Positions 13,890 to 40,416 of a stretch of DNA of 64,000 nt are shown here, piece by piece; position 1 is the first letter of the stretch, and each line of letters starts with the position of its first letter. Where the stretch lies: positions 84,794 through 148,793 of the forward strand of contig CAVTGV010000003.1 in NCBI GenBank assembly GCA_963734365.1, read 5' to 3'. This stretch comes from an uncultured Thermoleophilaceae bacterium. Lineage in GTDB: Bacteria; Actinomycetota; Thermoleophilia; Solirubrobacterales; Thermoleophilaceae. The notes under the pieces were generated by a model. The model worked only from the letters and a program-made list of their open reading frames with translations. It was not told the origin of the DNA and did not search any database. Position numbers and translations under genes: made by a program.

Positions 13890-16800
13890 ATGAAGCGTCT
13901 GGCGACAGCAGCGGCTGTCGCCTGCGCAGCCTTGGCGGCCTGGGCACCCAGCGCCGGTGCCCAGCTTCCCGCCGCTCCCGCTGCTCCGTCGTTGACCGAT
14001 CCCGCCGCGGCGGTTTCCGATGTCACGGAAGCGGTTCCCGCGGTGGCCGAGGCGGTCCCCGAGGTCGTCGAAGCGGTCCCGGACGCGACCGAGGTGGCTG
14101 CCGCGCCGACGCCGGCGGCCGACCCGCCGGCCGCGCCTCAGCCTGAGGCCGCCCCGGCTCCGGTCGACTCGCCGTCGTCCACTCCGGCCGCGCCTTCGGA
14201 CGGCGGTGGCCGAGCCATCGACCCAGCAGGCCGATCCGGTGAGCGCGCCGGCCGAGGACAGCGCGCCGGCCCCTGCTCCCTCCGAGAGCGTGGCCTCGCC
14301 GAGCGACGGCACCGACAGCGCACCGGCTTCGCTGCCGGCGAGCCGCCGATGTCGTCGCGCCGGTGACCGATGCCGCGGACGACGTGGTCGCCGCGCTGCC
14401 GCTCGAGACGACCGACACCAGCGAAACGATCGACACGCCCGACGCGCCCGTGCCGCCTCTGCCCGAAGCGGACGCTGCCCCCTCGACGCCGGGGACGACC
14501 GAGACTCCGGCCCTGCCCGTCCCGGCACCCGCCCCGGCCGCTGCCGACGACCCGCCCCTGGCGGCAGTCGAGCCGCCGACGGGCTGCTCGCCGGTGACCG
14601 ACACAACCAATGACCTGGTCGGCCCCGACAGACACCGCCGACGACGTTGCGGGCGTTCTCACCCAGCCGGCCGATCCGGTGGCCCCGGCCGAGACGTCCG
14701 GCGACGTGGTTGCCCCGCTGACTGACGCGGGCGACGATCTGGTGGCGCCGGTGGCCGAGACGTCCGGCGATGTGGTTTCTCCGCTGGGCGACGTCGCCAC
14801 CGATCTGATGGCACCGGTCACCGACATCGCGGACGACGTGGCGGCCCCGGTGACGGACGCCGCTGACGATCTGGTCGCGCCGGTCACGGATGCCACGGAC
14901 GGTCTGGTCGCGCCGGTCGCGGACGTCACGGATGATCTGCTGGCACCGGTCGCGGATGCCGCGGACGATCTGGTCGCCCCGGTCGCCGACGCCACGGATG
15001 ATCTGCTCGCCCCGGTCGCGGATGCCACGGACGATCTGCTGGCACCGGTCGCGGACGTCACGGATGATCTGCTGGCCCCGGTCACGGACGTCACGGACGA
15101 TCTGCTGGCCCCGGTCGCGGACGTCGACGGACGATCTGGTCGCCCCGGTCGCCGGACGTCACGGACGATCTGCTCGCCCCGGTCGCCGACGTGACGGACG
15201 ATCTGGTCGCCCCGGTCACGGACGTCACGGACGATCTGCTGGCCCCGGTCGCCGACGTGACGGACGATCTGCTCGCCCCGGTCACGGACGTGACGGACGA
15301 TCTGCTCGCCCCGGTCACGGACGTCACGGACGATCTGCTGGCCCCGGTCGCCGACGTGACGGACGATCTGGTCGCCCCGGTCACGGACGTCACGGACGAT
15401 CTGCTGGCCCCGGTCGCCGACGTGACGGATGATCTGCTGGCCCCGGTCGCGGACGTCACGGACGATCTGCTGGCCCCGGTCGCCGACGTCACGGATGATC
15501 TGCTGGCCCCGGTCGCCGACGTCACGGATGATCTGCTGGCCCCGGTCGCCGACGTCACGGACGATCTGCTGGCCCCGGTCGCGGACGTCACGGATGATCT
15601 GCTGGCCCCGGTCGCCGATCTCACGGACGATCTGCTGACCCCGGTCGCCGACGTCACGGACGATCTGCTCGCTCCGGTCACGGACGTGACGGATGATCTG
15701 CTGGCCCCGGTCGCCGATCTCACGGATGATCTGCTGGCCCCGGTCACGGACGTGACGGATGATCTGCTGGCCCCGGTCGCCGATCTCACGGATGATCTGC
15801 TGGCCCCGGTCGCCGACGTCACGGATGATCTGCTGGCCCGGTGGCCGATCTCACGGATGATCTGCTGGCGCCGGTCACGGACGTCACGGATGATCTGCTG
15901 GCCCCGGTCGCCGACTCACGGATGATCTGCTGGCCCCGGTCGCCGACGTCACGGATGATCTGCTGGCCCCGGTCGCCGATCGTCACGGATGATCTGCTGG
16001 CCCCGGTCGCCGATGTCACGGATGATCTGCTCGCCCCGGTCGCGGATGTCACGGATGATCTGCTGGCGCCGGTCACGGACGTGACGGATGATCTGCTGGC
16101 CCCGGTGGCCGATCTCACGGATGATCTGCTGGCGCCGGTCACGGACGTCACAGATGATCTGCTCGCCCCGGTTGCGGACGCTGCCGACGATCTGCTCGCC
16201 CCGGTCACCAACACCGCCGACGATCTGCTGGCTCCGGTGACTGATGCCGCGGATGATCTGCTCGCCTCGGTGCTCGACGAGGCCGGCGCTCTTGTCGGAC
16301 CGTTGGTTGCACCGGTGACGGGGACGCTGGCGCCCATCGTTGATTCAGTCGCACCGGTGTTCGCTGGGCTGGATCAGGCCCTTTCACCGGTAGGCGGACT
16401 GGTGGCGCCCCTTACCGGCTCGCTCCCCCGGGTGGATGTCGATCTGGGCGTCGAACTCCCTGGCCCCCACGCCGGTTCCCCGGTGCCGACCTCGGGACCC
16501 GTGGTCAACGACCGCGGTGTGGCCGCGCTCAAGGATCCGCCGGTGAGCTCGTCCCCGACCGGGATGGGTCTCGGGTCGCCGACACTCTCGCCGACGCCGG
16601 CTGACTCCGGCTCGTCGGTTCACGCCCGCAACTTCGCCGCCGGAACTGGCAACGCGGCCGAATCCATGCCGCTATGGGCCGCAGCCCCGTTCGCGCATGC
16701 TGTTGCTGTCGCCACCGTGGGTGTGCCTGCTGGTGACGTTGGGTCCTCGCAGCGGCCGGTGGGTGGCGGTTCGGCGCCTGCGCCGGCGCCGGCGGCGAGT

Positions 16801-16968
16801 TCGGCTGCGGGTTCGGCGGGTGGGTTTGGGTTTGGTTTCAGCTCTTTGTTTGCTCTTCTTGCTTCTCTGGCGGCGTTTGCCGCTTTCCGCTATGGCCGGC
16901 GTTTGCGTTTGGCGCCGGTGTTGTGGCGGCCGGCGGCTTTTGTGGCCGTCATCGAGCGGCCTGGTTAG
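13890..16968 (+). pseudogene. Secreted, C-terminally anchored acidic tandem-repeat protein (~1000 codons), interrupted by at least 8 single-base indels in this sequence
   Basis: GGAGG plus ATG 13890. Signal peptide MKRLATAAAVACAALAAWAPSAGA. The coding sense passes through frames 0,1,2,0,2,1 across tracked ORFs 13767-, 14020-, 14363-, 14610-, 15191- and 15841-. C-terminal helix LFALLASLAAFAAF followed by RYGRRLR. Confidence 0.7.
14700..16290 (+). repeat. 33-bp (11-codon) tandem coding repeat array, consensus GACGTCACGGACGATCTGCTGGCCCCGGTCGCC = DVTDDLLAPVA
   Basis: The period is visible directly in the sequence. Roughly 45-50 units, estimated from length divided by period and not counted one by one. 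More degenerate units flank the core at about 14640-14700 and 16290-16400. Confidence 0.9.
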
Positions 16969-17039
16969 CCCTTTCGGGGTCGATCAGGTCTGCCTGGGTG
17001 CTGTGCGTGCCTGGGCCAATCGCTCGATGAGGAGAAACC

Positions 17040-17237
17040 ATGTTTTCGACATATGGCTCGGGCATCCGGCGAGCCGGGCTGGTGGCAGTGATTGCCGCTG
17101 TGGTCCTGTTGTGGGTGCCCGCTACCGGCTTTGCCGCCGGCGCCTCGGGGACGGCGACGTTGCGTCCCGTGCTGGCACCGGTCGGCGCAGGCCGGGACGG
17201 CCCCGGTGGCGAGGTGGGCGGGGTATTGGACCCCTAG
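17040..17237 (+). CDS. Small signal-anchor ORF, possibly the severed N-terminus of the downstream gene
   Basis: GAGGAG lies 6 nt before ATG 17040. MFSTYGSGIRRAGLVAVIAAVVLLWVPATGFAAG reads as a positive N-region followed by a TM helix. Confidence 0.5.
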   Translation: MFSTYGSGIRRAGLVAVIAAVVLLWVPATGFAAGASGTATLRPVLAPVGAGRDGPGGEVGGVLDP

Positions 17238-17262
17238 GGCCCATTCGCGTGCCGAGGGGCTA

Positions 17263-18498
17263 GTGCAGCGGCGCGTGAGGGTGATTCAGCGTGTGCTGAC
17301 TCGGTTGGGTAAGCGTCCGGGGCCGGTGGACGGGTTGTTTGGTCCGTTGACCGAGGCTGGTGTGGTGCGCTTTCAGCGCTCGGTGGGTATCGCCGCGGAC
17401 GGGGTCGTTGGGCGCCAGACCGCCCGGCAGCTGTTGGCTGCCGCGACACGCCTGTCTGACACGCGGCTGGCGCGCAACCCGGGCGCGGCTCGGGACACGG
17501 GTCGGTTTGCCAGTGCGCGTTTGCCGAGGGGCGGGACGGTCGACCAGGCCGCACAGAACGGGCCCACTGGGCTCGGTGCTTCGGTCTCGCAGGCCGCCGC
17601 GCCGGGCCAGGAGGAAGAGGTCGAGCCGGCTCTGATGCTGGCGTTGGCGCTGCCTCTGCTGCTGGTCTCGGCGCTGCTGGGTGCGCTGCGGGGACGCGTC
17701 ACACCCGCACGCGAACCGAAGACAAACGGAGGAACCATGAACAACTCAGTAATGATCCCGGCCGCCCCCCGGCCGGCGCCGGAAACCACCGGCCACAGCG
17801 GTAACACCGGTAACAACAACAAGGCCCCGGCCAGGCCGGAGCAGCGCGAGGCGTTGCGGGCGATCGGGTATGTGACCGGCGGCCCGCAGGGGGATGTCGA
17901 GGAGTCGGGGGTGCGCGACCAGATGGCCGCCATCGCCGCCAGCTGTGTGCAACGCGGCTGGGATCTGCTGGAGATCGTCCGCGATGTGGAACGCGAAGGC
18001 GTCCGGGCCCCCGAACGACCCGGACTGGTCCACGCCCTCAAACGCCTGGAGGCCGGTGAGGCCGGCTGCCTGATCATCTACTCGCTGCCAAGGCTGAGCC
18101 CCACGGTGACCGAGCTGGGCAGCATCCTCAAGCAGATCGGCCGCGGCGGCGGGCGGTTTGTCTCGCTAGAGGACCAGATCGACACCGCCGAACCGGCCGG
18201 ACGAAAGGCGGCCAACGTGATCGTCTCGGTCAGCGGCTGGGAACGCGAACGACTCGGCGAACGCACCCGCGAAGGGCTCGCCGCGGCCCGCGCCAAAGGC
18301 AGCTCGATCAGCCGCCCCTCGGTACAAGACGTGCCCATGCTCAAAGAACGCGTCGCCGAAATGAGAGCCGAAGGCATGACCCTCCAAGCGATCGCCGACT
18401 GGCTCAACGACGCCGGCGTACCCACCCTAAGAGGCGGACAGAAATGGCGCCCCTCAAGCGTCCAAGCCGCCGCCGGCTACAAAAGACCCAAACGATGA
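17263..18498 (+). CDS. Peptidoglycan-binding domain + TM helix + catalytically degenerate serine-recombinase (resolvase)-like domain with C-terminal HTH
   Basis: PG_binding_1 pattern VIQRVLTRLGKRPGPVDGLFGPLTEAGVVRFQRSVGIAADGVVGRQTARQL. TM helix ALMLALALPLLLVSALLGAL. Resolvase core AIGYVTGGPQ...RPGL...YSLPRLSP...WERERLGERTREGL. GTG 17263 is tentative. Confidence 0.75.
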   Translation: MQRRVRVIQRVLTRLGKRPGPVDGLFGPLTEAGVVRFQRSVGIAADGVVGRQTARQLLAAATRLSDTRLARNPGAARDTGRFASARLPRGGTVDQAAQNGPTGLGASVSQAAAPGQEEEVEPALMLALALPLLLVSALLGALRGRVTPAREPKTNGGTMNNSVMIPAAPRPAPETTGHSGNTGNNNKAPARPEQREALRAIGYVTGGPQGDVEESGVRDQMAAIAASCVQRGWDLLEIVRDVEREGVRAPERPGLVHALKRLEAGEAGCLIIYSLPRLSPTVTELGSILKQIGRGGGRFVSLEDQIDTAEPAGRKAANVIVSVSGWERERLGERTREGLAAARAKGSSISRPSVQDVPMLKERVAEMRAEGMTLQAIADWLNDAGVPTLRGGQKWRPSSVQAAAGYKRPKR

Positions 18499-18545: not shown

Positions 18546-19541
18546 CTAGCTGAGCCATTCGTAGAGGGGGCCCTCGGCGACGGTGACCAGCTCGGGCTCG
18601 ATCTCGTTGCCGGCGGCGACGAGCGCCTCGGCCACCGCGACGTAGTCGCGCCCGGGCAGGGCGTGGGCGCCCGAGCCGTGCGCGGCCCACGCCAGGGGCG
18701 TGCCGGAGGCGGTGGCCGGGTTCGCTTCCGCTCCTCGAGCCAGCAGCCGCCGGACGACGTCCGGGCTGCCCACCCAGGCGGCGTGGTGAAGCAGGCTGCC
18801 GTTGGGTGAACCTCCCACCACACCGGCGAAGTCGGGGCCCACGGCGTCAACGACCGCGTCGAGCTCCCCGCGCAGGGCGGCGAGGATCAGCACCTCCTGA
18901 GGATCCGGATCGAGCGCGTCCGGCAACGGTGCCTCGGGGCGCTCGCCACGAGCCACCGCCGCCACTGCCAGATCCGCGGCGGCCACATCCGTGGCCGCGC
19001 CCTGGCCCGCCAGCAGCCGCGCCTCCTCGGCGCGATTTCTCAGCAGCGCGTGCTGGTAGGGGGTGCGAAGGGGTACGCGACCGCGCCAGGTCTCGCCCCC
19101 GGGCCGATCGAGCTCGGCCCCGCGGTCGGCCAGCAGGGCCAGGAACTCCGTCCCGCGGCCGCGCCGCACGGCGTGGGCCAGCAGGGCTCCCTCGTTGGGG
19201 TCGGCCCCGGCGTCGAGCAGCAGGCGGACGTGCTCCAGGCGTTCGTCGTCGAGCGCGTGCGCCAAGGCGTTGGTGCCGTTCGGCTGGGCGCCGTGGCCCA
19301 AGAGCAGCGCCAGGCATGCCGGATCCTCGGCTTCGGTGGCGTGGTAGAGCGACTCGCCGTCGTCGGGATCGGCTCCGGCCTCGAGCAGCAGGCGGGTGAG
19401 CTGGGGATCGTGGGCGATGCCGGCCGCGCCGTAGAGGGCCGACATGCGCCCGTGCTCGTTCACGAAGGAGGCGTTGGGATCGGCGCCGCGCCGGAGCAGC
19501 GCTTGGGCGAGCTCGGCCGACGCGAAGCACGAGTGGCACAC
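18546..19541 (-). CDS. Ankyrin-repeat protein (the coding signal appears to continue upstream to about 19742-19757)
   Basis: Repeated LLLxxGADPN ankyrin units. The first canonical start is GTG 19541, but the frame stays open and protein-like for 72 more codons. Confidence 0.8.
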   Translation of the reverse strand: MCHSCFASAELAQALLRRGADPNASFVNEHGRMSALYGAAGIAHDPQLTRLLLEAGADPDDGESLYHATEAEDPACLALLLGHGAQPNGTNALAHALDDERLEHVRLLLDAGADPNEGALLAHAVRRGRGTEFLALLADRGAELDRPGGETWRGRVPLRTPYQHALLRNRAEEARLLAGQGAATDVAAADLAVAAVARGERPEAPLPDALDPDPQEVLILAALRGELDAVVDAVGPDFAGVVGGSPNGSLLHHAAWVGSPDVVRRLLARGAEANPATASGTPLAWAAHGSGAHALPGRDYVAVAEALVAAGNEIEPELVTVAEGPLYEWLS

Positions 19542-20669: not shown

Positions 20670-21038
20670 GTGGTGAAGACGGCGCCTCGCGTTGCGCGCG
20701 TGGGCACCCGGATTCGCTTCAGGCTGACCGTGACGAACGTCGGGTCGGTCGCTGCGCGGAGCGTGGTGATGGCGGACGTCCCGCCGGCGGCAGTCGCGCT
20801 GGCCGCTCTCAAGACTCGCACCCGAGGGCAGGTCGTCCGGGGAAACGCCGTATGGCGCCTCGGAACGCTCGCCCCGGGAGCGAAGCGCACCGTGAGCGGA
20901 ACCGTCCGCATAAAGGCCGGGACCCCTGGCCTCAAGCGCAATCTGGTGCTGGTCACGGCCGCCAACGCCAAGCTGGCAAGGGATCGGGCCGATTCGAGGG
21001 TCAAGGCCCGGCAGCGGGTCTCGCCGGTCACCGGATAG
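20670..21038 (+). CDS. Single DUF11-like (conserved repeat) domain protein, possibly a fragment
   Basis: Pattern RIRFRLTVTNVGSVAARSVVMADVPP...VWRLGTLAPGAKRTVSGTVRI. No signal peptide. GTG start. Confidence 0.5.
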   Translation: MVKTAPRVARVGTRIRFRLTVTNVGSVAARSVVMADVPPAAVALAALKTRTRGQVVRGNAVWRLGTLAPGAKRTVSGTVRIKAGTPGLKRNLVLVTAANAKLARDRADSRVKARQRVSPVTG

Positions 21039-21055
21039 GCAGACAGCGGCTACCT

Positions 21056-21075
21056 CGAGGGCACGCCTGCCCTCG
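21056..21075. terminator. Bidirectional hairpin CGAGGGCA-CGCC-TGCCCTCG between convergent genes
   Basis: Perfect 8-bp stem with a 4-nt loop, read from the sequence. It sits between the DUF11 stop (21038) and the GS-like stop (21077). No U-tract. Confidence 0.5.
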
Positions 21076-21076
21076 G

Positions 21077-22432
21077 TCACAGGTGATGCAGGTACTCGGC
21101 GATCTCCCAGTCGGAGACCCAAGCGCGGTGGCGTCCGATCTCGAAGCGCTTGACGGCGAGGAAGGTCTCCACGATCTCCGGGCCGAGCGCCCGGCACAGG
21201 ATCTCGTCGCTCTCGAGCGCCTCGAGTGCCGCGTCCAGCGATACGGGGAGTGCTCGGCCGATCGCCTCGTGGTCCGCTCGGTAGGCATCACCGTGAACCG
21301 GGGGCGGCGGACGCAGGCCCTCCCGTATGCCGTGTGCGCCGGCGGACAGCACCGCCGCGATCGCCAGATACGGGTTCGCGCCACCGTCAGCGACCCGGAT
21401 CTCTATCCGTGTGCCGGCTCCGCGCTCTGGCGGGACACGGATGAAAGTGCCTCGGTTGTCCCACCCCCAGTTCGCGTGGGTCGGTGCAAGCGAGTCAGGC
21501 TGGATGCGCCGGTAGGCGTTGACGGTGGGGTTGAGAAGCGCCATCAGGCCCGCCGCGTGGGCGAGCACACCCGCGCTGAACGCGCGGAGCTCGGCACTGA
21601 CGCCCTCCTCCTCCGCGGGCGCGCCGAACGCGTTGCGCTCGCCCCGGTTGAGAGAGACGTGGAGATGGGTGCCCGAGCCGCCCTGGTCGTTGAACGGCTT
21701 CCCCATGAACGTGGCCAGGAGTCCGTGCTGCGCCGCGATGTCCTTCACGGCGGCCTTCAGTCGAAACGCCCAATCGGCCGCCCGCAGGGCGTCGGTGTGG
21801 CGCAGATTGATCTCGTACTGGCTGTTCATGAACTCGTGGCTGAAGGAGAGGACCCGCAGCCCCAGCCCGGCCAGGCCCTCGGTAATCGCCCGCACGATCC
21901 CGCCGGGGTCCGCCTGCGGACCGACCGCGTAGACCATGCTCGGTTGGTCGACTTGGCGCCGGACGCCGCGTTCCGCGGTGGGGTCGGGGCGGAGCAGGAA
22001 GAACTCGAGCTCGGGCCCCACGATCGGGTCGAGGCCGCTTGCCCTCAGGTCTCGAACCGCCCGGCGCAGCGCGCCGCGCGGGTCCGCTATGGGAGCGCCG
22101 CCCTCGGCCGGCTCGAGATCCGCCAGGCAGCTCGCCACCCCCGGCTCCCACGGCAGCGTCGCCATGGTCGTCATGTCGGGGCGAGCGATGAAATCGGGAT
22201 AGCCCTCGTCGCCGCCGACCACGGGCGTGCCACGCAGGTCGGTGCCCATCACGGCGGCGCAGAAGCGAAGACCGTGATCGAGTACGTGGTCGAACTCCGC
22301 GATCGGCACGTCCTTGCCGCGGGCGACGCCGTGGAGATCGGCGTAGAGCACCCGGATCACCCTCACCGGCGTGCCGGTGGACAGCTCGGTGACCGTCTCG
22401 GACCGGGGGTCGCTGCGCGCGGAATCAGTCAT
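21077..22432 (-). CDS. Glutamine synthetase family protein (gamma-glutamyl-amine ligase type, substrate unknown)
   Basis: 451 aa. GS beta-grasp and catalytic domain patterns (LYADLHGVARGK, GPELEFFL, GSGTHLHVSL, NPYL). Last gene of the fae-mtdB operon. Confidence 0.85.
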   Translation of the reverse strand: MTDSARSDPRSETVTELSTGTPVRVIRVLYADLHGVARGKDVPIAEFDHVLDHGLRFCAAVMGTDLRGTPVVGGDEGYPDFIARPDMTTMATLPWEPGVASCLADLEPAEGGAPIADPRGALRRAVRDLRASGLDPIVGPELEFFLLRPDPTAERGVRRQVDQPSMVYAVGPQADPGGIVRAITEGLAGLGLRVLSFSHEFMNSQYEINLRHTDALRAADWAFRLKAAVKDIAAQHGLLATFMGKPFNDQGGSGTHLHVSLNRGERNAFGAPAEEEGVSAELRAFSAGVLAHAAGLMALLNPTVNAYRRIQPDSLAPTHANWGWDNRGTFIRVPPERGAGTRIEIRVADGGANPYLAIAAVLSAGAHGIREGLRPPPPVHGDAYRADHEAIGRALPVSLDAALEALESDEILCRALGPEIVETFLAVKRFEIGRHRAWVSDWEIAEYLHHL

Positions 22433-23509
22433 CTAAGCCAGACTGATCCCATCGGCTCCGTGCATGCGCAGGTGGTCCAGCGCGGTGCCGCTCGCCTCGC
22501 GCAGGCGGAGCCGCTCGACCAGCGGCGCGTATCGCCCTCCGGCCAGGCCGTCCGCAATCAGGGCCGCGCCCTGCGCTGACGTCTTGGCGCGCGGCCCCGG
22601 CCCGGTGGCGGCCGCGACGGGCGCCACACCAGCGAGCCGTTCCTCGAGCGCCTCGAGCATGCCGGGAGCTCCCGCCAGGCGGCCCGCGACGAGGATCTCG
22701 CGCGGCGCTGGGACCGAGGCCGTCAGGGCAAGCGCGGCCTTGACCGCGCCCTCCTCGAGCCCGAGCCATCCCTCGTGTGCGTCGGGGTCGCTGCGCAGCG
22801 CTTCGAGCGCGTCGGGCGACGAGAGGTCAAGCCGTCCGCGGGCGTCGAGCGCCCCGCCACTGAAGACGGTCTCCTTGGAGAGCGCCGCACCCAGCAGGTA
22901 GGCCACCTCCGCGTCGAGCGCCCCGCAGGAGCGAGCACCGATCGGCGCGCAGGAGCCGCCGATCCCGTCGACGATCTGTCCACCGTCGATGGCCAGCGCG
23001 GCGCTGAATGCGCCGCCGAGCTCGAGCATGACGAACGACGTCTCCTCGTAGGCCAGGCCGAGCCGCTCCGCCTGGTCGGCGATGCACAGCGCCGCGCTAC
23101 ACACCTTGTCCGCCGTCCCGAGGTCGATGCGGTTCCACTTGCGGTGGTCAGGGACCGTGGGCAGGTGGATCGCTCCGGGGCCGAAGACCAGCGGGAGCCC
23201 GGCGCCGATGAGCGCGCGAATCAGTGCGCGCAAGCCGCCGATGCCCGCGTGCGCGCCGGCTTCGTCGCTGCGCAGCAGCAGCATCAGTCCCAGCTCGTGC
23301 TCGCCGACCCGTTCGCCGGAAACCAGCGGCAGGCCATACCCGGCGGGCCCGAGCACGAGGTCGAGCGGGCCCTGAGCCAGGAGCGCATCGACCAGGGGCG
23401 CCGGATCGAGTGCGAGGTCGGACGAGCGAAAGCTCTCGGCGAGCAGCAGCTCGCCGCCGTCGAGTGCGCACACGTCGATGGAGACGGTCCCGGGATCGAT
23501 GCCCGCCAC
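22433..23509 (-). CDS. ASKHA-fold (DUF1464-like) protein of the H4MPT cluster
   Basis: GIDPGTVSIDV phosphate-1-like motif and LELGGAFSAALAIDGGQIVDGIGG. GTG 23509 was chosen to avoid overlapping mtdB. Confidence 0.65.
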   Translation of the reverse strand: MAGIDPGTVSIDVCALDGGELLLAESFRSSDLALDPAPLVDALLAQGPLDLVLGPAGYGLPLVSGERVGEHELGLMLLLRSDEAGAHAGIGGLRALIRALIGAGLPLVFGPGAIHLPTVPDHRKWNRIDLGTADKVCSAALCIADQAERLGLAYEETSFVMLELGGAFSAALAIDGGQIVDGIGGSCAPIGARSCGALDAEVAYLLGAALSKETVFSGGALDARGRLDLSSPDALEALRSDPDAHEGWLGLEEGAVKAALALTASVPAPREILVAGRLAGAPGMLEALEERLAGVAPVAAATGPGPRAKTSAQGAALIADGLAGGRYAPLVERLRLREASGTALDHLRMHGADGISLA

Positions 23510-23528
23510 CCGTGGAGCGGACGACGAG

Positions 23529-24392
23529 TCAGACGATCTCTTTGGCGACGTCGTAGACGCCATCCGCGTCAAGCAGGAGATCGCTGCTCTCGAAAAGCCT
23601 GCGCACGCAGGCCTTGTGCGTCTTCATCTTCTTGCCGCCGATGCCGAGCGCGCCGAGCACGAGCTTTCCCTCCCGCTCGACCAGATCGTCCCCGGCCTCG
23701 ACTCCCTCGATGCCGAGCGGCTCGGCCGCGTTGTAGTCGCCCAGCACCTCGATCGACGTGTTGGCGCTCCATACCTCCTGGCGGAGCACCTCCACACGAG
23801 CCGGCGCCGAGGCCAACACGATGTTCGCCCCCTCGAGCGCAGCCTCCATCTCCGCCCGGTCGGCCGGCTCGCGAGTGTCGATGCCCAGCTTCTCGGCGGC
23901 GGCAAGGCCGCGCGGCCGGCGGTAGGAGTCGGTGCCGAGCACGTCGCCCGGGATCGACGTAGCCAGCACCTCGCACCCCTCTTGTGCCAGGAGCGTCGCC
24001 GAACGCAGCCCGACGGGCCCCACGCCCAGGATCACCGCGCGGCTCCCGTCCAGGTCACGAGCCTTGGCGATCATCGCGACGGCGGTGGCCGCCGTGGTGT
24101 TGCAGCCGTCGGAGTCGAGCATCGTGGACACGCGAAACGGCCCGAAGTACGTGTCCTGCACCTCGGCGAGGACCTCCTCGCCCGCGCCCACGTCCGAGCC
24201 TCCGACCCACACGGCCAGCGAGGGGTCGCCCGGGGCGCGCGTGAAGAACGCGCCCTGGACGAGATCCTGTACGTCTTCCGGCGTCACGCCCCCGTGGCTG
24301 AGCAGGGCGTCCACGCCCGCGTCGTACGCCACGATGGCGTCGAAGGGGCTCGGATGTGGATCGGTATCGAGCTGTAGAAGGACCTTCTTCAC
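23529..24392 (-). CDS. mtdB: NAD(P)-dependent methylene-tetrahydromethanopterin dehydrogenase (MtdA/MtdB family)
   Basis: 287 aa. MKKVLLQLDTDPHPSPFDAIVAYDAG...FGPFRVSTMLDSDGCNTTAA closely resembles Mtd sequences from methylotrophs by recall. Confidence 0.85.
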   Translation of the reverse strand: MKKVLLQLDTDPHPSPFDAIVAYDAGVDALLSHGGVTPEDVQDLVQGAFFTRAPGDPSLAVWVGGSDVGAGEEVLAEVQDTYFGPFRVSTMLDSDGCNTTAATAVAMIAKARDLDGSRAVILGVGPVGLRSATLLAQEGCEVLATSIPGDVLGTDSYRRPRGLAAAEKLGIDTREPADRAEMEAALEGANIVLASAPARVEVLRQEVWSANTSIEVLGDYNAAEPLGIEGVEAGDDLVEREGKLVLGALGIGGKKMKTHKACVRRLFESSDLLLDADGVYDVAKEIV

Positions 24393-32611: not shown

Positions 32612-33329
32612 GCGCGCGCAGCTCCTCGGATCCGATCGCGCCACCGTGCAGGGCTGTGGCCACGAGCGCGCCCGCCGCCCCGGCCTCGGCGAGAGCGCGC
32701 AGGTCCGCGAGGTCGCGCACGCCGCCGCCGGCCAGCAGGTCGAGTTCGGGAAAGCGCGAGCAGAGCTCGCGGACGAGCGCGACATCGGGGCCGGCGCCCG
32801 ATCCGACGCGCGCGAGGTCGAGCACGATCACCTCATCCACGCCCGACTCGATGAAGCGCGCCAGCGCCCCTGCCGCCCCGAGCCGGGCGAGGCCGGGATC
32901 GCGAGAGACGACGTGCTCTCCCCGGAGATCGATGCTGAGCACGAGCGGGGCGTCGGGTAGCTCCGCCCGCAGCCGCCCGAGCGCGGCCGGGTCGCCCAAC
33001 GTCTCGGTGCCGATCACGACGCGCGCTGCCCCCAGCTCGAGCAGCCGCCGGACGGCGGCGGCGCCGGTCACACCGGCGTCGACCATCACGCGCGCCTCGA
33101 GCGCCAGGGCGGCGAGGGCATCGCGATGCAGCGGGCCGCCCGCGATCGCGTCGAGATCGGCGACGTACAGCTCGTCCAGGCCGAGTTGCTCCCGGAAGGC
33201 GCGAGCGACGTCGAGGGGTTCTGAGCCGGCGACGAGCCCACTCTGGAGCGGGCGGTAGCGTTCGCGCTGCCCCCGTGCGGCGTGCACGACGGCTCCGCTC
33301 TTGAGATCGATGACCGGGATCACTCGCAT
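32517..33329 (-). CDS. HisA/HisF-family (beta/alpha)8 barrel protein of the H4MPT biosynthesis cluster
   Basis: MRVIPVIDLKSGAVVHA...LYVADLDAI...GGGVR. ATG 33329. The 3' tail overlaps mptN convergently. Confidence 0.7.
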   Translation of the reverse strand: MRVIPVIDLKSGAVVHAARGQRERYRPLQSGLVAGSEPLDVARAFREQLGLDELYVADLDAIAGGPLHRDALAALALEARVMVDAGVTGAAAVRRLLELGAARVVIGTETLGDPAALGRLRAELPDAPLVLSIDLRGEHVVSRDPGLARLGAAGALARFIESGVDEVIVLDLARVGSGAGPDVALVRELCSRFPELDLLAGGGVRDLADLRALAEAGAAGALVATALHGGAIGSEELRALSPGRSQDALPAQPPRRHPSSARPPASRGSR

Positions 33330-33509
33330 TTGTGGTCGCCTCCGCAAATACGCTCGCGTTCGGCGGCTGCGAACCTTCGCCTGGCCGCACCCGCGATGCT
33401 CGCCAATGCGTTGCATTGGCTGCGCTCGCGTGCACGCCCATGCTCGGTTCTCGCTCGCCGAGCCACGACCGTATTTCCATCGGAGACCACTTGCCAGGGA
33501 GGGTCGCGC

Positions 33510-34514
33510 ATGGGCGGCGTGATCGGGCTCGACGTGGGCGGCGCCAACACGAAGGCGGTGTGGCTGGGTGGGCACGAGCGCCGCGCGCTGTCGCGACCGT
33601 TCGAGGTCTGGGGCGACCGGGACGCGCTCGCGGCCGTGATCCGCGAGGTCGTCGCCGGCGTTGCGGCCGAGCCCCCGGAGGTGACGGCCCTCACCACGAC
33701 CGCCGAGCTGTCGGACGCGTTTCGCACCAAGCGCGAGGGCGTGGAGTTCGTGCTCGACGCGGCGGAGACGGCGCTGGACGGCTCCGAGCTGCTCGCCTTC
33801 ACGACCTCGGGGGAACTGGTCCCGTTCGCCGAGGCACGTGCGCGCGCAGCGGAGGTGGCGGCCGCCAACTGGCTGGCGAGCGCGCACGCGGTGGCCGCGC
33901 TGCACCCGGAGGCCCTGATGGTCGACGTCGGCAGCACGACCGTCGACGTGATCCCGATCGCCGCCGGGCGGGTGGTCGCCGCCGGCCGCACCGACCTCGA
34001 CCGGCTGCTGGCCGGCGAGCTCGTCTACACCGGCGCGCTGCGCACCAACCTCGCGGCGATCGCCGCGCGAGTGCCGGTGCGCGGCGGCTCGTGTCCGATT
34101 GCGTCGGAGCTGTTTGCGATCAGCGCCGACGTCCACCTGATCCTCGGCCACCTCGCGCCGGCCGAGTACACCTGCGCCACGCCGGACGGGCGGCCCGCGA
34201 GCGTCGAGTTCGCACGCGAGCGCGTCGCGCGGCTGGTGTGTGCCGACGTGGATCAGCTCGCGACGGCGGAGGTCGATGCGATCGCCGCGTTCCTGCACGC
34301 GGAGCAGGTCCGCCAGATCGAGGCCGCGGTCCAGCGGGTGAGCGAGCGGCTGGAGGGCGACCCCGCCGTGGTCCCGCTCGGCACGGGCGCCTTCCTGGCG
34401 CGGGAGGCCGCCGAGCGCCTGGGCCGGCCGGTCGTCGAGCTCCCCTGGAGCGCGGCCGAGCGCGACGCGGCGCCTGCCGCCGCCCTTGCCGAGCTCGTGG
34501 CCGCGCGGTGCTGA
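33510..34514 (+). CDS. Hydantoinase-A/ASKHA-like 'H4MPT-linked C1 transfer pathway' protein (possibly MfnF-like)
   Basis: MGGVIGLDVGGANTKAV N-terminus. RBS CAGGGAGGG. The MfnF assignment is from memory and tentative. Confidence 0.6.
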   Translation: MGGVIGLDVGGANTKAVWLGGHERRALSRPFEVWGDRDALAAVIREVVAGVAAEPPEVTALTTTAELSDAFRTKREGVEFVLDAAETALDGSELLAFTTSGELVPFAEARARAAEVAAANWLASAHAVAALHPEALMVDVGSTTVDVIPIAAGRVVAAGRTDLDRLLAGELVYTGALRTNLAAIAARVPVRGGSCPIASELFAISADVHLILGHLAPAEYTCATPDGRPASVEFARERVARLVCADVDQLATAEVDAIAAFLHAEQVRQIEAAVQRVSERLEGDPAVVPLGTGAFLAREAAERLGRPVVELPWSAAERDAAPAAALAELVAARC

Positions 34515-35182
34515 CCGTCGTCAAGGTCGGCGGCGGGCTGGCGCGCGCGGCGGGTGACGACGCGCTCCGGAGGCTGTGCCGCGCGCTCGGCGAGGCCGGC
34601 GCCCGCCATCCGCTCCTCGTCGTGCCGGGCGGCGCCGCCTTCGCGGACGCCGTGCGCGAGCACGACGGCCGCTTCGGCCTGCAGCCCGCGACGTCGCACC
34701 GGATGGCGATCCTCGCGATGGACCAGTTCGGCTGGCTCCTGTCCGATCTGATCCCGGGCGGCGTTCCGTGCACCGACGTGGCGGCCGACCCTCGAGGACG
34801 CATCCCCGTCCTGCTGCCCGCCGGGCTGCTCGCCTCGGACCCGCTCCCCGCCTCGTGGGAGGTGACCTCCGACTCGATCGCCGCCTGGGTGGCCGGCGCC
34901 GCGAACGCTGGACGCCTGGTCCTCGTCAAGCCGGTCGAGGGGCTCTACCGCGACTGGCCGGCGGACGGCCGGCCGATCGCCCGGCTGAGCGTGGACGAGC
35001 TCGCCGAGCTGCGTGCGGCGGGGCACGCCGCGGGCGTCGACCCGCACCTACCTGAGGCGCTGCGGACGGCCGGCGTCGAAGCCTGGGTGATCGACGGCCG
35101 CGAGCCCGCCCGGCTCGTGACGCTGCTGGATCGCGGCAGCACCGAGGGGACGCTTGTGACGGCGTCGGGCGGGACGCCCTAG
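34508..35182 (+). CDS. Amino-acid-kinase-fold protein (possibly MfnE-like kinase of methanofuran biosynthesis)
   Basis: VLTVVKVGGGLARA...LLVVPGGAAFAD is typical of the Asp/Glu/UMP kinase fold. GTG 34508 overlaps the upstream stop (GTGCTGA). Confidence 0.6.
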   Translation: MLTVVKVGGGLARAAGDDALRRLCRALGEAGARHPLLVVPGGAAFADAVREHDGRFGLQPATSHRMAILAMDQFGWLLSDLIPGGVPCTDVAADPRGRIPVLLPAGLLASDPLPASWEVTSDSIAAWVAGAANAGRLVLVKPVEGLYRDWPADGRPIARLSVDELAELRAAGHAAGVDPHLPEALRTAGVEAWVIDGREPARLVTLLDRGSTEGTLVTASGGTP

Positions 35183-35884
35183 CCCTCGCACTCCGCGCGC
35201 AGGCGCCCGATCCGCTCGGCGTCGAGGGGCGCCGTGCGCCGGCCGCCGCGGCAGGCCGCGGAGCGCACGCCGGCTATGTCGGCGCCGGTCGCCCGCACCA
35301 GGCTCAGTTCCTCGGCCCGTAGGGCTCCCGCGAGCGCCATCTCCAGGCCCGCGGCGTGCCCCTCGTCCACCAGCGCCTCGAGCGCTGCCGGCGTGAGCCA
35401 TTCGAACAGGCCGCGGCCGTCCTTGACCGCCGTGTCCAGAAGGCAGCCCCCGACGCCCGCGCGGCGGGCGGCCTCGACGACGTGACCGGGTGGCAGAGGC
35501 CGGCCGGGCACGCGCTCGGCGTCGGCGTACGCGGCGGCGATCACGGCCGCGCCGCCGTCGATGTGCGTCACGAACGGCGCTCAGGACCGCCACCGCCTCA
35601 TCCGTGCCGGACGTGCCCCACAGTCCCACCTTCACGTAGGCAGCGCCGGAGCGTGCGGCGCCCAGTGCGGCCAGCGCGGCGGTGCCGGGCAGGTTGGGCA
35701 GGTCGCCGATGGCGGCGCTCACCGGGCGCTCCGGCGGCACCACCTCGCGGACTCGCCCGATCACACCGGGGCCGGGGGCGCCCAGCGCGCCCTCCGCGGG
35801 GTTCTTGACGTCGACGATGTCCACACGGGCCTCCACCGCGACACGCGCCTCATCGGCATCGACGACGCTCACCAGCAGTCTCAT
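35179..35884 (-). pseudogene. mfnB: (5-formylfuran-3-yl)methyl phosphate synthase (MfnB, DUF556), split by a 1-nt frameshift near 35575-35583
   Basis: The N-terminal half MRLLVSVVDADEARVAVEARVDIVDVKNPAEGALGA...YVKVGLWG is in one frame. The C-terminal half FVTHIDGGAAVIAAAYADAE...CLLDTAVKDGRGLFEW is in another. Confidence 0.75.
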
Positions 35885-36822
35885 CCGGCCTCCACACGCG
35901 CGCCACGATTGTCGAAGCTCACGACCTCCACCCGGCCGTCCCCGGCCAGCTCGGCATCCAAGCTCCGGGCCAGCTCACGGCCCGCCTGCTCGTCCCCGAC
36001 GATCCCGTAGACGGCGGGTCCCCACGAGCTCTGTCCCGCGCCCGCCGCCCCCAGGCGAAGCAGCGCGTCGACGAGGTCGCCCGCACGCGGGTGGAAGACA
36101 CCACCCTGAACCGAGGCGAATGACTCGCCCACAAGCTGCTGAACACGTGTGAGCGCGGCCCCGAACTCGGCCAGATCGCCCTCGGCAAGCCCGGGGAGCA
36201 GCGAGGTGAGCACCAGCTGGGCGATGAGCGCGGCGCGGTCTGGGTCCGGGCGCAGCTCGCCGAATGCCTCCTCCTCGGCCCGGCCCGAGAGGCCCGGCTC
36301 GGCCTGGGGGATCACGAGCACGCAGCGCCATTCCTCCGGCATCGCGTGCTGGGCCAGCAAGGGCGCCGGCCGGTCCACGCCGGGACGCCTGCCGCCCTCC
36401 ACGACCAGTCCGCCGAGGACGAATGTCCACAGTCCGACTGCCGAGCGCGCGCCGCGCCCGGCGGCGCGGGCGATCGTCTCCGGCCCCGGCGTCTGCCCCG
36501 CCAGGGCGGCCACGGCCGCCGTGACTGCGAGCGCGAGCTTGGTGCCCGAGCCGAGGCCGACATGAGGTGGGATCGCCTCGAGCACACGGACGTGCACGCC
36601 GCCCAGGAGTCCAAGCGCCTCCCGGGAGCGGCGCGCGACGGCGAGCGCCCGCTCGGCATCCGGGCCGTCGGCGGTGAGTTCGTCGCTCGGGCTCGCTTCG
36701 ACGACTGCGGCGGGACGGCCGAGGGCCACTCCCAGGCCGCCGAACCGCCGTGTGCCGCCGCCGGCGGCGTCGAGCATGCCCATGTGCAGGCGCGCGGGCG
36801 CCTCGACGCGGACGGACTTCAT
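35881..36822 (-). CDS. mptG: Beta-ribofuranosylaminobenzene 5'-phosphate synthase
   Basis: 313 aa, GHMP-kinase-like. VEAPARLHMGMLD, PPHVGLGSGTKLALAV. Confidence 0.8.
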   Translation of the reverse strand: MKSVRVEAPARLHMGMLDAAGGGTRRFGGLGVALGRPAAVVEASPSDELTADGPDAERALAVARRSREALGLLGGVHVRVLEAIPPHVGLGSGTKLALAVTAAVAALAGQTPGPETIARAAGRGARSAVGLWTFVLGGLVVEGGRRPGVDRPAPLLAQHAMPEEWRCVLVIPQAEPGLSGRAEEEAFGELRPDPDRAALIAQLVLTSLLPGLAEGDLAEFGAALTRVQQLVGESFASVQGGVFHPRAGDLVDALLRLGAAGAGQSSWGPAVYGIVGDEQAGRELARSLDAELAGDGRVEVVSFDNRGARVEAG

Positions 36823-37400
36823 CCGCTGCCCACGGCAGTGTGCACGTGTCGCCGCACGAGCTCCATCGCCTCGTGCTCCCGCGGTCCGGCCGTCTTGTCG
36901 ACGAGCACCTGCAGGCGCTCCAGCTCCGCCCGGATCTCGGAGGCGGGCAGCCGGCGCGCGCGCGAGGCGATGATCGATGCCTCGAGCACCGCATGGCAGG
37001 CGCGGTTGAAGCCGAGGAACTCCCGGCCGGTCCCGCGATCCACGACGTGAGTGGTCACACGGGCGCGCGGCCCGCTCGCGTCGATCGCGTGGACCGTCAC
37101 CTCACGCCACGAGCAGGCATCCGCCAGCACGGCCCCGTCGATCGTCGTTGCGGGCCGCGTGGGCGGGTGCGGATCGCCGAGAGCGGCCTGCGTGAACACC
37201 AGGATGTCGTCTGTGATGTTGACCACCGCCGCCCCCGTGGCCTCGAGGTTGCGCAGCGTGCGCGTGGAGGCGTAGGGCTTGATGACGATCGCGTCGTCTC
37301 CCCACTCCACTCCCATCGCGGCGCAGTTGACCGTCCCGTCCGGGTTGATCGTCGTGGTGACGGTCTCGATGATCGCGGCGCCGGGCAGGCGGTCGCTCAT
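36819..37400 (-). CDS. DUF447 family protein (H4MPT-cluster associated)
   Basis: 193 aa. IIETVTTTINPDGTVNCAAMGV is typical of this family by recall. Overlaps its neighbours by 4 nt on both sides. Confidence 0.65.
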   Translation of the reverse strand: MSDRLPGAAIIETVTTTINPDGTVNCAAMGVEWGDDAIVIKPYASTRTLRNLEATGAAVVNITDDILVFTQAALGDPHPPTRPATTIDGAVLADACSWREVTVHAIDASGPRARVTTHVVDRGTGREFLGFNRACHAVLEASIIASRARRLPASEIRAELERLQVLVDKTAGPREHEAMELVRRHVHTAVGSG

Positions 37401-38347
37401 CCCCGGAAGGACCGCTCGAGCACGCCGATGTCCACGTCCCCGGCGTGAAAGCTACGACCGCTCGCCACGCTCACCAGGCGCACCTCGGCGGGGCTGAAGA
37501 GCAGCGGGTCGATCTTGTAGAAGTCCCAGTCCGCCGCCTCGAGCACGTTGCCGAACGGCTCGCCGTAGTCATCCGAGGCCGAGGACGGGAGGCGGGGCAC
37601 GACCGCCTCGAGCTCCTCATCGGGTGCGTCGACGGTGAGCTCCACCTGGCCGCCGTACAGCACGGCGTCGTTCGTGCGGCCGATCGCCTCGGGGTCCTTG
37701 CGGGCCACGGGCGGCAGCGGGCAGCTCCCGAAGCCGCTCACCACGCGACCCACGTCGAACTCGAGCTCGTGCAGCTTGTGGAGCGCGGTCTCGACCACGC
37801 GGGCGGCGACCTGCACACTGCCTGCCAGGCAGGCGGTTGGAGCGAACAGCAGGGTCAGATCCGCGGCGGCCACGCCCGCCTTCTCGGCCACGAAGCCGGC
37901 GACCTCCTCCGGCGGAGCGTCGCGCGTCTCGAGACACAGCACAGCGTGGCGGGCACTCTCGTCGACCTCGAGATCGTCGTAGAGGTCCTCGGCCCGGATC
38001 AGCGCCCGGCCCGGTCCACTGGCCATCGCGAAGTAGTCCTCGGGGTCCAGACGCCAGCCCGCGTACTGCGAAGCGAGGCAAGCCAGCGCCGGCCTATCGG
38101 TGATGACCGTGAGCCCGGGGAGCCAGCGGCTGTCGAGAACCAGGGGCGCGAACGACACCGTGCCCAGGCCGGCCATGCAGATCTCCGCGAAGCGCCGTCC
38201 GGCCTCCAGTCCGCCCGGGACCGCGCTGCCGCAGTCGATCAGCCGCGTGCCGTTCGGCAACGTGGTCACGGCCACGCGCAGGGCTTCGGCGTCGGCCGCG
38301 AGGCTGTCGGCGAGCTCCTGGGCGCGATCGTTGAGCGAGAGCGTCAC
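37397..38347 (-). CDS. mch: Methenyltetrahydromethanopterin cyclohydrolase
   Basis: 316 aa. LIDCG...GGLEAG, ACLASQYAGW, GRTNDAVLYGG match the Mch pattern by recall. Confidence 0.9.
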   Translation of the reverse strand: MTLSLNDRAQELADSLAADAEALRVAVTTLPNGTRLIDCGSAVPGGLEAGRRFAEICMAGLGTVSFAPLVLDSRWLPGLTVITDRPALACLASQYAGWRLDPEDYFAMASGPGRALIRAEDLYDDLEVDESARHAVLCLETRDAPPEEVAGFVAEKAGVAAADLTLLFAPTACLAGSVQVAARVVETALHKLHELEFDVGRVVSGFGSCPLPPVARKDPEAIGRTNDAVLYGGQVELTVDAPDEELEAVVPRLPSSASDDYGEPFGNVLEAADWDFYKIDPLLFSPAEVRLVSVASGRSFHAGDVDIGVLERSFRG

Positions 38348-38371
38348 GGTTCGGGCCGGAGCATAGGCCGG

Positions 38372-39511
38372 TCAGCCGAGCGCCCGGAGCCCGGCGCGGT
38401 CACCGAGCTCGGCGCGGAGCGCGGCGGCACGCTCCTCGAGGTCGGCGAGAACCGCCTGTGGGGACTCCTGCATCGAGACGAGCGTGCACACAGGATGGCC
38501 GGCGGCGATGCGCTCATCCGGGTGCGGCACGTCGCGGATGCCGCGCGCAGGCCAGCCGCCGGTGTCGCCGACGCGCACGTCTCGGGTGGCGAACAGAATC
38601 GCCTTGCCGGCCGCCCGGCGCGGGCTGGCAGCGGGAGCGAACGAGGGTAGGCGCCCGGCGCAACCGTCGAGGTGAGCGGAGAAGACGCCGACGTCGTGCG
38701 CGGCCTCGATGCATTCGAGCGACCCCGTCGGACGGGGGTTGACCTCGACGACCCAGGCGCGCTCGCCGTCCCACACGAGATCCACGCCGAACAGCCCGCG
38801 CAGTTCGAACGCCGACGCCAGATGCGTGCATACCGTCCGCGCCGCTTCGGCCAGCGCGCTTTGCTCCACCTCGCCGAGCCGCGGCGGCACCAGGTTTCCG
38901 CTCCAGGCGTATCCGCGCGCGCCGAGCTTGCGGTGTCCGATCAGCTGCTCGCTCACGCCGAGCAGGACGGCCGAATGCCCGTCGGCGACGGCCGCGGCAG
39001 AGCACGCGAGCCCCGAGATGTGCTCCTGCACGACCACCTCGCCGTCGAGCGTGCCGCCGCGCCACTCGCGAACGCCCCGTCCGCCGCCGCCGCGCACCGG
39101 TTTGCGCAGCCAGCGACGCGAGCGCTCGGCCAGTCGCGCGGCGTCGGCGGCGCCGAACGTCGACGGATAGGCGAGGCCGGCCGAGCGCAGGGAGGCGGCC
39201 AGCGTTGCCGGGTCGCGCACCCGCTCGAGCGTCTCAGCCGTGCACCCCAGGAGCCTCCTGCCGGATGCCAGCCGGGCGACGAGGTCGGGCCGGTTCTCGA
39301 GTCCCGCGCCGTAGATCACGCTCGGCGCCGGAATCCGCTCCGCCGCGTCCACCAGCGCGGCCATCCCGCCCCGGCCTCCGAGGTCGCGCAGCACGGAGAC
39401 GCTCGGGCAGAGCCGCTGCAGGTCGAGATCACCGAAGCGATCGACCGCCACCACGTCGTGCCCGGCCCTCACCGCGAGCTCGGCCAGCATGCGCGCGCTG
39501 ACGGAGATCAC
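38372..39511 (-). CDS. ATP-grasp ligase of the H4MPT/methanofuran cluster (MfnD-like?)
   Basis: This is the C-terminal 380 aa of the 675-aa tracked ORF. ISVSARMLAELAVRAGHDVVAVDRFGDLD...VVEVNPRPTGS. GTG 39511 (or ATG 39490). Confidence 0.7.
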   Translation of the reverse strand: MISVSARMLAELAVRAGHDVVAVDRFGDLDLQRLCPSVSVLRDLGGRGGMAALVDAAERIPAPSVIYGAGLENRPDLVARLASGRRLLGCTAETLERVRDPATLAASLRSAGLAYPSTFGAADAARLAERSRRWLRKPVRGGGGRGVREWRGGTLDGEVVVQEHISGLACSAAAVADGHSAVLLGVSEQLIGHRKLGARGYAWSGNLVPPRLGEVEQSALAEAARTVCTHLASAFELRGLFGVDLVWDGERAWVVEVNPRPTGSLECIEAAHDVGVFSAHLDGCAGRLPSFAPAASPRRAAGKAILFATRDVRVGDTGGWPARGIRDVPHPDERIAAGHPVCTLVSMQESPQAVLADLEERAAALRAELGDRAGLRALG

Positions 39512-39537
39512 GAGGATCGGCTCGGCCGCGGGTCCGG

Positions 39538-40399: not shown

Positions 40400-40416
40400 G
40401 CGTATAGCTTGGCGGG

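Follow-up and report, generated by a model that had tools for sequence, protein, structure and literature searches.

An acidic 11-residue repeat gene of uncultured Thermoleophilaceae in a probable module with a junction RNA and a resolvase-like partner

Introduction

Repeat-rich, sortase-anchored (LPXTG) surface proteins of Gram-positive bacteria share a plan in which a signal peptide precedes long tandem repeats with a strain-variable copy number, a low-complexity linker that spans the wall, a C-terminal helix and a basic tail. Here we describe a gene that follows this plan in an uncultured Thermoleophilaceae bacterium. The gene lies on the plus strand at positions 13890-16968 of a 64,000-nucleotide stretch of contig CAVTGV010000003.1 (assembly GCA_963734365.1), hereafter called the window, and it encodes a strongly acidic protein built largely of 11-residue repeats. 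We consider it probable that this repeat gene, its frame damaged here by consensus errors, belongs to a conserved protein-RNA-protein module. The module also includes a structured RNA placed across the end of the repeat gene, stop codon included, and a downstream partner gene for a peptidoglycan (PG)-binding, resolvase-like membrane protein. This joint reading, including the mechanism that we propose below, is in our view the best explanation of the data.

Other described systems resemble parts of this module. PEP-CTERM proteins, which are linked to exosortase, and GlyGly-CTERM proteins, which are linked to rhombosortase, share with the repeat protein a short module at the extreme C terminus that consists of a Gly-rich lead-in, a transmembrane (TM) helix and an Arg cluster. 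In these systems too, the module is carried by otherwise variable, low-complexity proteins and by one lineage only. The hendecads of apolipoproteins A1, A4 and E have the same exact 11-residue period, punctuation by proline and a continuous hydrophobic stripe at 3.67 residues per turn. Tetrabrachion, a right-handed coiled coil that forms a long, C-terminally anchored stalk, is a further likeness. The closest described relatives of the partner are Gin and Hin invertases and gamma-delta/Tn3 resolvases, with which it shares the Resolvase fold signature, the RPGL motif, the E-helix and a C-terminal helix-turn-helix (HTH)-like segment. Canonical serine recombinases carry the motif Y-x-R-V-S-T-x-x-Q (GYxRVSTxxQ), whose catalytic residues are the nucleophilic Ser10 and the neighboring Arg8. 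We found no paper describing the repeat family, the fusion of PG-binding and resolvase domains, or the junction RNA.

Results

An earlier note on the window, made from the sequence alone, had proposed a Shine-Dalgarno (SD) sequence, an ATG and a Sec signal peptide, followed by a spacer and by head-to-tail 33-bp units that encode 11-residue repeats. All of these elements were recovered (Table 1). Direct reading placed the SD sequence (GGAGG) 13 nt 5' of the ATG and gave the signal peptide MKRLATAAAVACAALAAWAPSAGA, with its cleavage point directly before QLP; an ending of the form A-x-A, cleavage point, Q[LV]P was seen again in relatives. The spacer is rich in Pro, Ala and Glu. Tandem Repeats Finder (TRF) detected the array with 86% matches and, directly 5' of it, degenerate 66-bp units. 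When the units were laid out in register, 37 were clean 33-mers with the consensus GCCCCGGTCGCGGACGTCACGGACGATCTGCTG, which encodes APVADVTDDLL, a unit with three Asp; one proline is present in every unit. GC3 frame plots were ambiguous within the Ala/Pro-rich part. Among the clean units, minor alleles fell at codon positions 1, 2 and 3 in the proportion 34/9/82, and codon differences from the unit consensus comprised 71 synonymous and 41 nonsynonymous changes, the latter being conservative (A/T, V/L/A and L/V). Because unit variation is mostly synonymous, these comparisons indicate that the plus frame of the array has been under selection as protein.

After eight one-base edits (see below), the repeat protein comprises 1,024 aa with no internal stop, 17% Asp, 12% Pro and a net charge of about -178. 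Its C-terminal hydrophobic helix LFALLASLAAFAAF spans residues 985-998 and is followed by basic residues (RYGRRLRL). A strict LPXTG motif is absent from the protein, as the earlier note had held, and loose matches are limited to residues 148 and 864, well away from the helix. Likewise, the motif scan gave zero matches each for the RTX motif GGxGxD, the pentapeptide motif A[DN]LxX and collagen-like G-X-Y in the repeat protein, families that had also been set aside earlier. The earlier description of the protein end as a G/S stretch, a helix and a basic cluster proved accurate as far as it went, and it missed a conserved tail of 14 residues beyond the basic cluster. This tail, WRPxAFVAVIERPG, is a point that goes beyond the earlier note, as are the downstream partner gene and the RNA that spans the stop codon.

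The tail is the hallmark of the family. When the whole conceptual protein served as the query, low-complexity words dominated the search; the four distant repeat proteins that it returned, for example an OmpA-family protein with LEPVTDPVD-type units, were uninformative for the family. With the unique C-terminal 245 aa as the query, we recovered ten proteins with 11-residue acidic repeats (VEDLTAPLAPV and VETVTEPLIPI, for example). These ten proteins share an end made of a G-rich stretch, LFALLxSLAAF, RLRL and WRPxAFVAVIERPG as the last residues (alignment A1). A profile of the C-terminal module, searched against 1.84 billion representatives, matched 328 representative clusters at E<=1e-3 and 63 at E<=1e-10; among the matches listed, all end at the last residue of the protein. 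Complete smaller members (P0051 and P0095) have the same plan, including an '...AQLP' signal-peptide end, and the gene in the window displays each of its parts, from the signal peptide and the short acidic repeats in tandem, through the G-rich stretch and the TM helix, to RLxL and the WRPxAFVAVIERPG end. Intact relatives are likewise acidic, with 105-140 Asp plus Glu versus 15-20 Lys plus Arg.

Neither Pfam nor NCBIfam holds a model for the repeat or the tail, in agreement with the earlier note, in which the unit could not be assigned to a named family. The sole Pfam signal was the apolipoprotein domain (PF01442), at 21.6 and 22.0 bits versus a cutoff of 90, and a search with the 68-aa C terminus and four family members gave no relevant NCBIfam match even at E<=10. 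The 25 loci found in GTDB species representatives all come from Thermoleophilaceae metagenome-assembled genomes (MAGs), except for one 3-kb contig binned as Asanoa sp. Five MAGs carry two copies of the whole module, one between clpX and valS and one elsewhere (L008/L018, L027/L010, L016/L014, L021/L020 and L030/L028); the junction sequences of L020 and L021 are identical. Judged by these sequence comparisons, the repeat gene is real and is a member of an undescribed family of acidic, membrane-anchored surface proteins of soil Thermoleophilaceae, to which the family is confined in the reference genomes scanned. The membrane-anchored, highly negative envelope fibre that the earlier note had envisaged agrees with the signal peptide, the TM helix, the positive-inside tail, the charge and the same plan in relatives.

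A coding sequence with PG_binding_1 and resolvase-like domains lies directly downstream, on the same strand, in 30 of 30 loci with downstream sequence (the window, L001-L003, L005, L006 and 24 further loci). The intact partner of L003 matched the Pfam models PG_binding_1 (54.6 bits, residues 78-131), Resolvase (PF00239; 77.8 bits, residues 298-428, cutoff 23.3) and Recombinase (26.2 bits, residues 444-483). Since hydrophobic segments at residues 6-36 and 192-220 bracket the PG-binding domain, the partner is predicted to be bitopic, with the PG-binding domain outside the membrane and the resolvase-like half in the cytoplasm. Its homologs include Gin invertase (E 1.3e-16) and the gamma-delta/Tn3 resolvases; alignments with PDB entries start only at residue ~36. 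Its N-terminal motif reads GYVTGGP(Q) in the clade of the window and GYVS[VI]P elsewhere, and the canonical Arg8/Ser10 catalytic motif was not found in the aligned partner family. The counterpart of LDRLGR is LERLSR or LPRLSP. Strongly conserved are RPGL, the E-helix and the C-terminal segment GMTLQAIADxLNxEGVPTLRGGxxWRPSSVQAAAGYRRP. Both proteins of the module end in W-R-P ... R-P (WRPAAFVAVIERPG at 16924-16965 and WRPSSVQAAAGYKRPKR at 18440-18495), which may be coincidence or mimicry. The architecture of the partner is common in soil metagenomes (at least 699 clusters, with automatic names only), and no NCBIfam model scored above its cutoff. The copy in the window had been called as a shortened protein of 411 aa (P0197).

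Clustering of neighboring ORFs placed 16-17 of 27 loci in the context tig-clpP-clpX-lactamase_B-[module]-valS-folC. The recurrence of one housekeeping context indicates that the module is a core chromosomal feature; the copy in the window lies at a site other than the clpX-valS position. No inverted repeats suggesting an invertible segment were found flanking the module, and no exosortase or rhombosortase gene lies beside it in the loci whose gene calls were inspected.

The junction between the two genes holds a structured RNA of ~85 nt. At 31 loci, the last seven codons of the repeat gene (GCC GTC ATC GAG CGG CCT GGY) are near-invariant in DNA, including the rare CCT, whereas the W-R-P-x-A-F-V codons vary synonymously. 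Twenty-seven distinct sequences, folded separately, gave the same architecture, at -44 to -60 kcal/mol. In the outer stem (P1), UCAUCGAGCG, formed by the V-I-E-R codons, pairs with CGCUCGAUGA, immediately 5' of the GGAG and ATG (17040) of the partner. The repeat gene's stop codon lies within the stem of arm P2, whereas arm P3 forms a GC hairpin of 9-11 bp. In the window, this hairpin contains four G-U pairs, which favor an RNA over a DNA site. As the MAFFT alignment had lost register where TAG and TAA stops differ, RNAalifold settled on a small local hairpin; separate folding followed by covariance-model realignment resolved the long-range stem.

A covariance model built from 13 TAG-stop sequences gave one plus-strand match per locus at 30 loci (60-98 bits) and recovered ten held-out TAA-stop loci at 67-89 bits, whereas the reverse strand scored 17-32 bits. 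The junction RNA of the window scored 90.2 bits, with no second copy in the window. Among the Rfam 15 covariance models, none matched at E<=10 across 16700-17400. In the model-guided alignment, which leans towards the structure of the model, 92.7% of cells pair, compared to 30-42% with slid partners. The covariation score was 0.161, compared to 0.113+-0.007 in shuffles, and was exceeded in 0 of 500; both partners change in six pairs, of which five belong to the GC hairpin. Weighing against the full structure, P1 and P2 are near-invariant and overlap coding sequence and SD, and the covariation support comes mainly from P3; the outer stem, being almost invariant, says little alone. The junction RNA, rather than the protein, may account for some of the invariance seen in '...VIERPG'. 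An element for mRNA stability or attenuation may be an alternative role of this RNA.

The repeat gene is not open in the window. Its 3,079 nt are not divisible by 3, an ORF listing gives five pieces in different frames, and the single ORF of about 1,000 codons that had been proposed earlier is obtained only by editing. Three-frame translation traced a coding path through frames 0>1>2>0>1>2>1>0>1, by way of eight one-base indels (Table 1). A -1/-2 pair at ~14570-14590 (region 14560-14625), compensated so that the frame is kept, also changes the TADGLLAS of L001 and L002 to PPTGCSP, so the gene in the window holds at least ten indel events rather than eight. Four of the five indels in the array fall at columns that are polymorphic between units (columns 12, 16, 16 and 18), and the inserted base is the alternative allele. 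The motifs concerned (GC[C+G]GAC, GT[C+G]ACG, GAT[C]GTC and GAC_TC) look as if both alleles had been kept or dropped. The fifth indel shortens a CCCC run. None of the five ORF fragments was matched exactly in the protein collection. The partner gene in the window is broken by a +1 indel at ~17182, the sole private coding frameshift outside the repeat gene in the ~17 kb of flank compared; gaps between the flanks and a JGI contig were only in-frame or intergenic.

Syntenic relatives were available from ENA ERZ25039591 (L001, L002 and L003, with Flye-style contig names) and from the JGI contig (L004), which looks short-read-assembled and ends 105 bp into the repeat gene. Over 13.5 kb, L001 and the window share 95.8% identity. 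The syntenic versions of the repeat gene in the window, L001, L002 and L003 are ~95% identical, and their breaks lie at sites that differ from one version to the next: the array of L001 contains about nine units of odd length, L002 is split into 453+194+259 aa, and L003 is split into 271+711 aa with no frameshift in its array. In a four-way alignment of the unique N-terminal part, no version other than that of the window carried the extra bases at ~14205 and ~14341, and L001 and L002 had private indels of their own. The motifs of the in-array indels recur in other units of L001. The NIF3 and GNAT genes of L001 (3960-4717 and 9330-9888) are each split in two and are intact in the window, which shows the indel error load of the L001 assembly. 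Elsewhere in the window, a minus-strand ankyrin-repeat gene carries a +1/-1 pair four bases apart (19299-19303) relative to L001, L002 and L003, a compensated frame excursion in an otherwise intact gene.

Relatives in reference genomes are nearly all from 'MFD...bin' MAGs, which are Nanopore-only Flye assemblies with one round of Medaka polishing (PMC12313526). The partner gene, which is not repetitive, is a single ORF in 21 of 30 loci and broken in the other 9, indicating a sizeable background indel rate. Intact repeat genes do exist: L008 (1,090 aa), L014 (785 aa), L015 (603 aa, on a contig with a k141 name, apparently assembled from short reads) and L024 (598 aa, on a closed 4.18-Mb chromosome). 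With relatives broken elsewhere, indels that resemble merged alleles, relatives from Nanopore-only assemblies and intact members at hand, the frame breaks in the window are most probably consensus errors of long-read assembly in a heterogeneous repeat and not the mark of a pseudogene.

The shape of the repeats was modeled with AlphaFold2 (AF2) in single-sequence mode. Twenty units of the window's repeat gave one helix of 218 residues (mean pLDDT, 85.4). A relative with two prolines per unit also gave helical repeats (pLDDT, 74-87), together with a disordered linker, a helical TM segment and a low-confidence beta-hairpin as the tail. With 11 residues per three turns, P2, V6, L10, V3, T7, L11 and A4 form a stripe, and D8, A1, D5 and D9 lie on the opposite face. 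The hydrophobic moment was 1.51 at the 3/11 harmonic (98.2 degrees), compared to 0.72-0.84 at other harmonics. The repeats thus have the 11-residue period and the hydrophobic stripe at 3/11 turn of a hendecad. Most relatives have two prolines per 11 residues and many Val, Ile and Thr.

In the earlier note, the charge of the protein and a lanthanide-type pyrroloquinoline quinone (PQQ) dehydrogenase placed in the same window had led to the idea, offered there as speculation, of a cation sponge with a lanthanide role. This idea found no support. The motif scan found no EF-hand, RTX-type or similar metal-binding motif in the repeat protein, and there was no XoxF/MxaF-type PQQ dehydrogenase among the 19 largest ORFs of the window. 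The only genes near to that description, at 51306-52553 and 54770-56122, are a radical-SAM/SPASM gene and an ORF of the PF07995 soluble glucose/sorbosone-dehydrogenase (sGDH) family. The window also carries several genes typical of C1 transfer linked to tetrahydromethanopterin (H4MPT) at 20700-24000 and 33200-43000 (19607-20849 in L001). These genes comprise DUF1464, Mpt_N (in L001), glutamine-synthetase-like, hydantoinase_A, a CitG and ATP-grasp fusion, and DUF6513 with a pterin-binding domain. It was probably these genes that prompted the remark on methylotrophy in the earlier note.

Table 1. Features of the repeat gene, the junction RNA and the partner gene, in positions of the window
Feature	Position	Strand	Basis
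Start codon and Sec-type signal peptide MKRLATAAAVACAALAAWAPSAGA	13890-13961	+	Direct reading; relatives
P/A/E-rich spacer and degenerate 11-aa units	13962-14801	+	Three-frame translation, four-way alignment
+1 indels in spacer	~14199-14206, ~14341, ~14621	+	
Tandem array, 44.5 x 33 bp, encoding APVADVTDDLL	14802-16271	+	TRF, unit layout, codon-position statistics
One-base indels in array	15126 (+G), 15154 (+G), ~15839 (-C), ~15915 (-1), 15981 (+C)	+	
Non-repetitive low-complexity P/S/G/A linker; modeled as disordered in a relative	16272-16761	+	
G/S-rich stretch	16762-16845	+	Motif scan, direct reading
TM helix LFALLASLAAFAAF	16846-16887	+	Conserved in alignment A1
Basic cluster RYGRRLRL	16888-16911	+	Conserved in alignment A1
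Invariant C-terminal tail WRPAAFVAVIERPG and stop TAG; family hallmark	16924-16968	+	Alignment A1, profile matches, 31 loci
Structured RNA, ~85 nt	16946-17030	+	Independent folds, covariance model, no Rfam match
Partner gene: signal/anchor segment, PG_binding_1, TM helix, resolvase-like domain, HTH	17040-18498	+	

Discussion

We propose the following model for the module. The gene encodes a protein that is exported and held in the membrane by its C-terminal helix, and the eight frameshifts in the window would be errors that a long-read metagenome assembly left in the consensus of a heterogeneous tandem array. The repeats would form an elongated, amphipathic, acid-faced rod, possibly a helical fibre of the hendecad type, that extends outward from the membrane and crosses the wall; with a rise of 1.5 A per residue, 45 units would be about 70 nm long. 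On completing the repeat gene, a ribosome would melt the outer stem of the junction RNA and free the ribosome-binding site of the partner, so that both proteins would be made together. The partner could then hold the fibre to PG non-covalently, through putative TM-TM contacts or contacts between the tail and the cytoplasmic domain, as a sortase-independent anchor. More tentatively, we suggest that the module serves the sortase-independent display of long acidic fibres, with the 'ERPG' tail as a docking signal, the partner as a pseudo-recombinase anchor or an anchor-linked DNA-binding regulator, and the RNA enforcing co-translation.

Several other explanations bear on the genes themselves. The most direct is that the repeat gene and the 5' end of the partner are true pseudogenes, in which real mutations mark a decaying second copy of the module. 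The damage is strikingly local, with nine indels within 3.3 kb and none private in the ~17 kb of flanks, and this locality, which would also fit decay of the module in this genome, keeps the pseudogene in consideration. The indel at ~14621, common to the window and L003, weighs in the same direction. In addition, both genes of the module are hit, and the copy in the window lies outside the clpX-valS position, in a family in which several genomes have two copies and one could be dispensable. However, the corrected reading has no in-frame stop, the array has stayed homogeneous and varies chiefly at codon position 3, close relatives are broken elsewhere with L003 almost intact, the indels resemble merged alleles at polymorphic columns, and the partner is broken in 30% of loci in the same assemblies. 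We therefore consider a pseudogene unlikely. Phase variation by slippage of the repeats was rejected as a cause of the breaks: the unit length is divisible by three, and no indel falls in a simple-sequence tract. An active partner would be a different matter, namely a site-specific recombinase with the palindromic junction as its DNA site, making the module a mobile or phase-variable surface-protein cassette. Homology to Gin and gamma-delta resolvase is clear, automatic annotation calls the protein a DNA invertase, the junction is a highly conserved palindrome, and second copies occur at varying sites. Yet Arg8/Ser10 is absent family-wide, LDRLGR is altered, the domain is tethered behind a TM helix and most copies sit in a fixed housekeeping context, which makes this explanation the most improbable of those considered here. 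A DNA recombination site at the junction was itself rejected, given the G-U pairs of P3, the strand asymmetry (60-98 bits on the plus strand versus 17-32 on the minus strand) and flanking inverted repeats that were not found.

The remaining alternatives concern what the repeats do. Instead of a rod, they may form a polyanionic brush that is extended, kinked by its prolines or disordered and that would act as a spacer across the wall, as other Pro-rich spacers do. This is a serious alternative, and one that we hold to be possible, although it is not the one we favor. Throughout the family, each stretch of 11 residues has one or two prolines and beta-branched residues are numerous, AF2 was run on single sequences with no alignment, and the protein is 17% Asp and 12% Pro; these points weigh against a helical rod. 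On the other hand, AF2 returned helices at pLDDT 74-87 for both one-proline and two-proline units, the 11-residue period is exact, with a clean hydrophobic stripe opposite the acidic face, and the moment at the helical harmonic is twice that at any other. Sequestration of cations such as Ca2+ or lanthanides at the cell surface would draw on a net charge of about -178 and on three Asp per unit on one helical face. We regard it as very unlikely, because the protein has no known metal-binding motif, the large ORFs of the window include no XoxF/MxaF-type enzyme, the conserved context is tig-clpPX and valS-folC rather than metal metabolism, and relatives have Glu, Asn or Thr in place of several Asp.

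Thermoleophilaceae are abundant soil actinobacteria, uncultured in this data set, and their envelope is essentially unstudied. A lineage-wide module, found mostly between clpX and valS, gives a concrete entry point to how they build their surface. With it comes a candidate signal for C-terminal anchoring that is absent from the curated libraries, and the partner clearly exemplifies how a catalytic recombinase domain can become a module tethered to the membrane. Long-read MAGs systematically break repeat genes of this kind, so that what gene callers report and protein databases contain is only pieces of the repeat gene.

Set beside the described systems, the module departs from each in particular ways. 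LPXTG proteins carry their motif before the helix; the repeat protein has neither LPXTG nor a related motif there, and its signature follows the helix and the basic cluster. The linked gene encodes a PG-binding, resolvase-like membrane protein and not a sortase. Unlike PEP-CTERM and GlyGly-CTERM proteins, the repeat family has no PEP motif or NCBIfam match and has 14 more conserved residues after the basic cluster. The repeats differ from apolipoproteins in scoring only 21.6-22 bits versus a cutoff of 90, in a polar face that is acidic only and in a proline in each unit. The repeats were modeled as monomers, and the proline in each unit calls for caution about an oligomeric helical bundle like that of right-handed coiled-coil stalks. 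In contrast to small serine recombinases, the partner has its N-terminal catalytic motif replaced, carries the recombinase-like domain behind a signal/anchor segment, PG_binding_1 and a TM helix, and is encoded at a fixed chromosomal position in most genomes.

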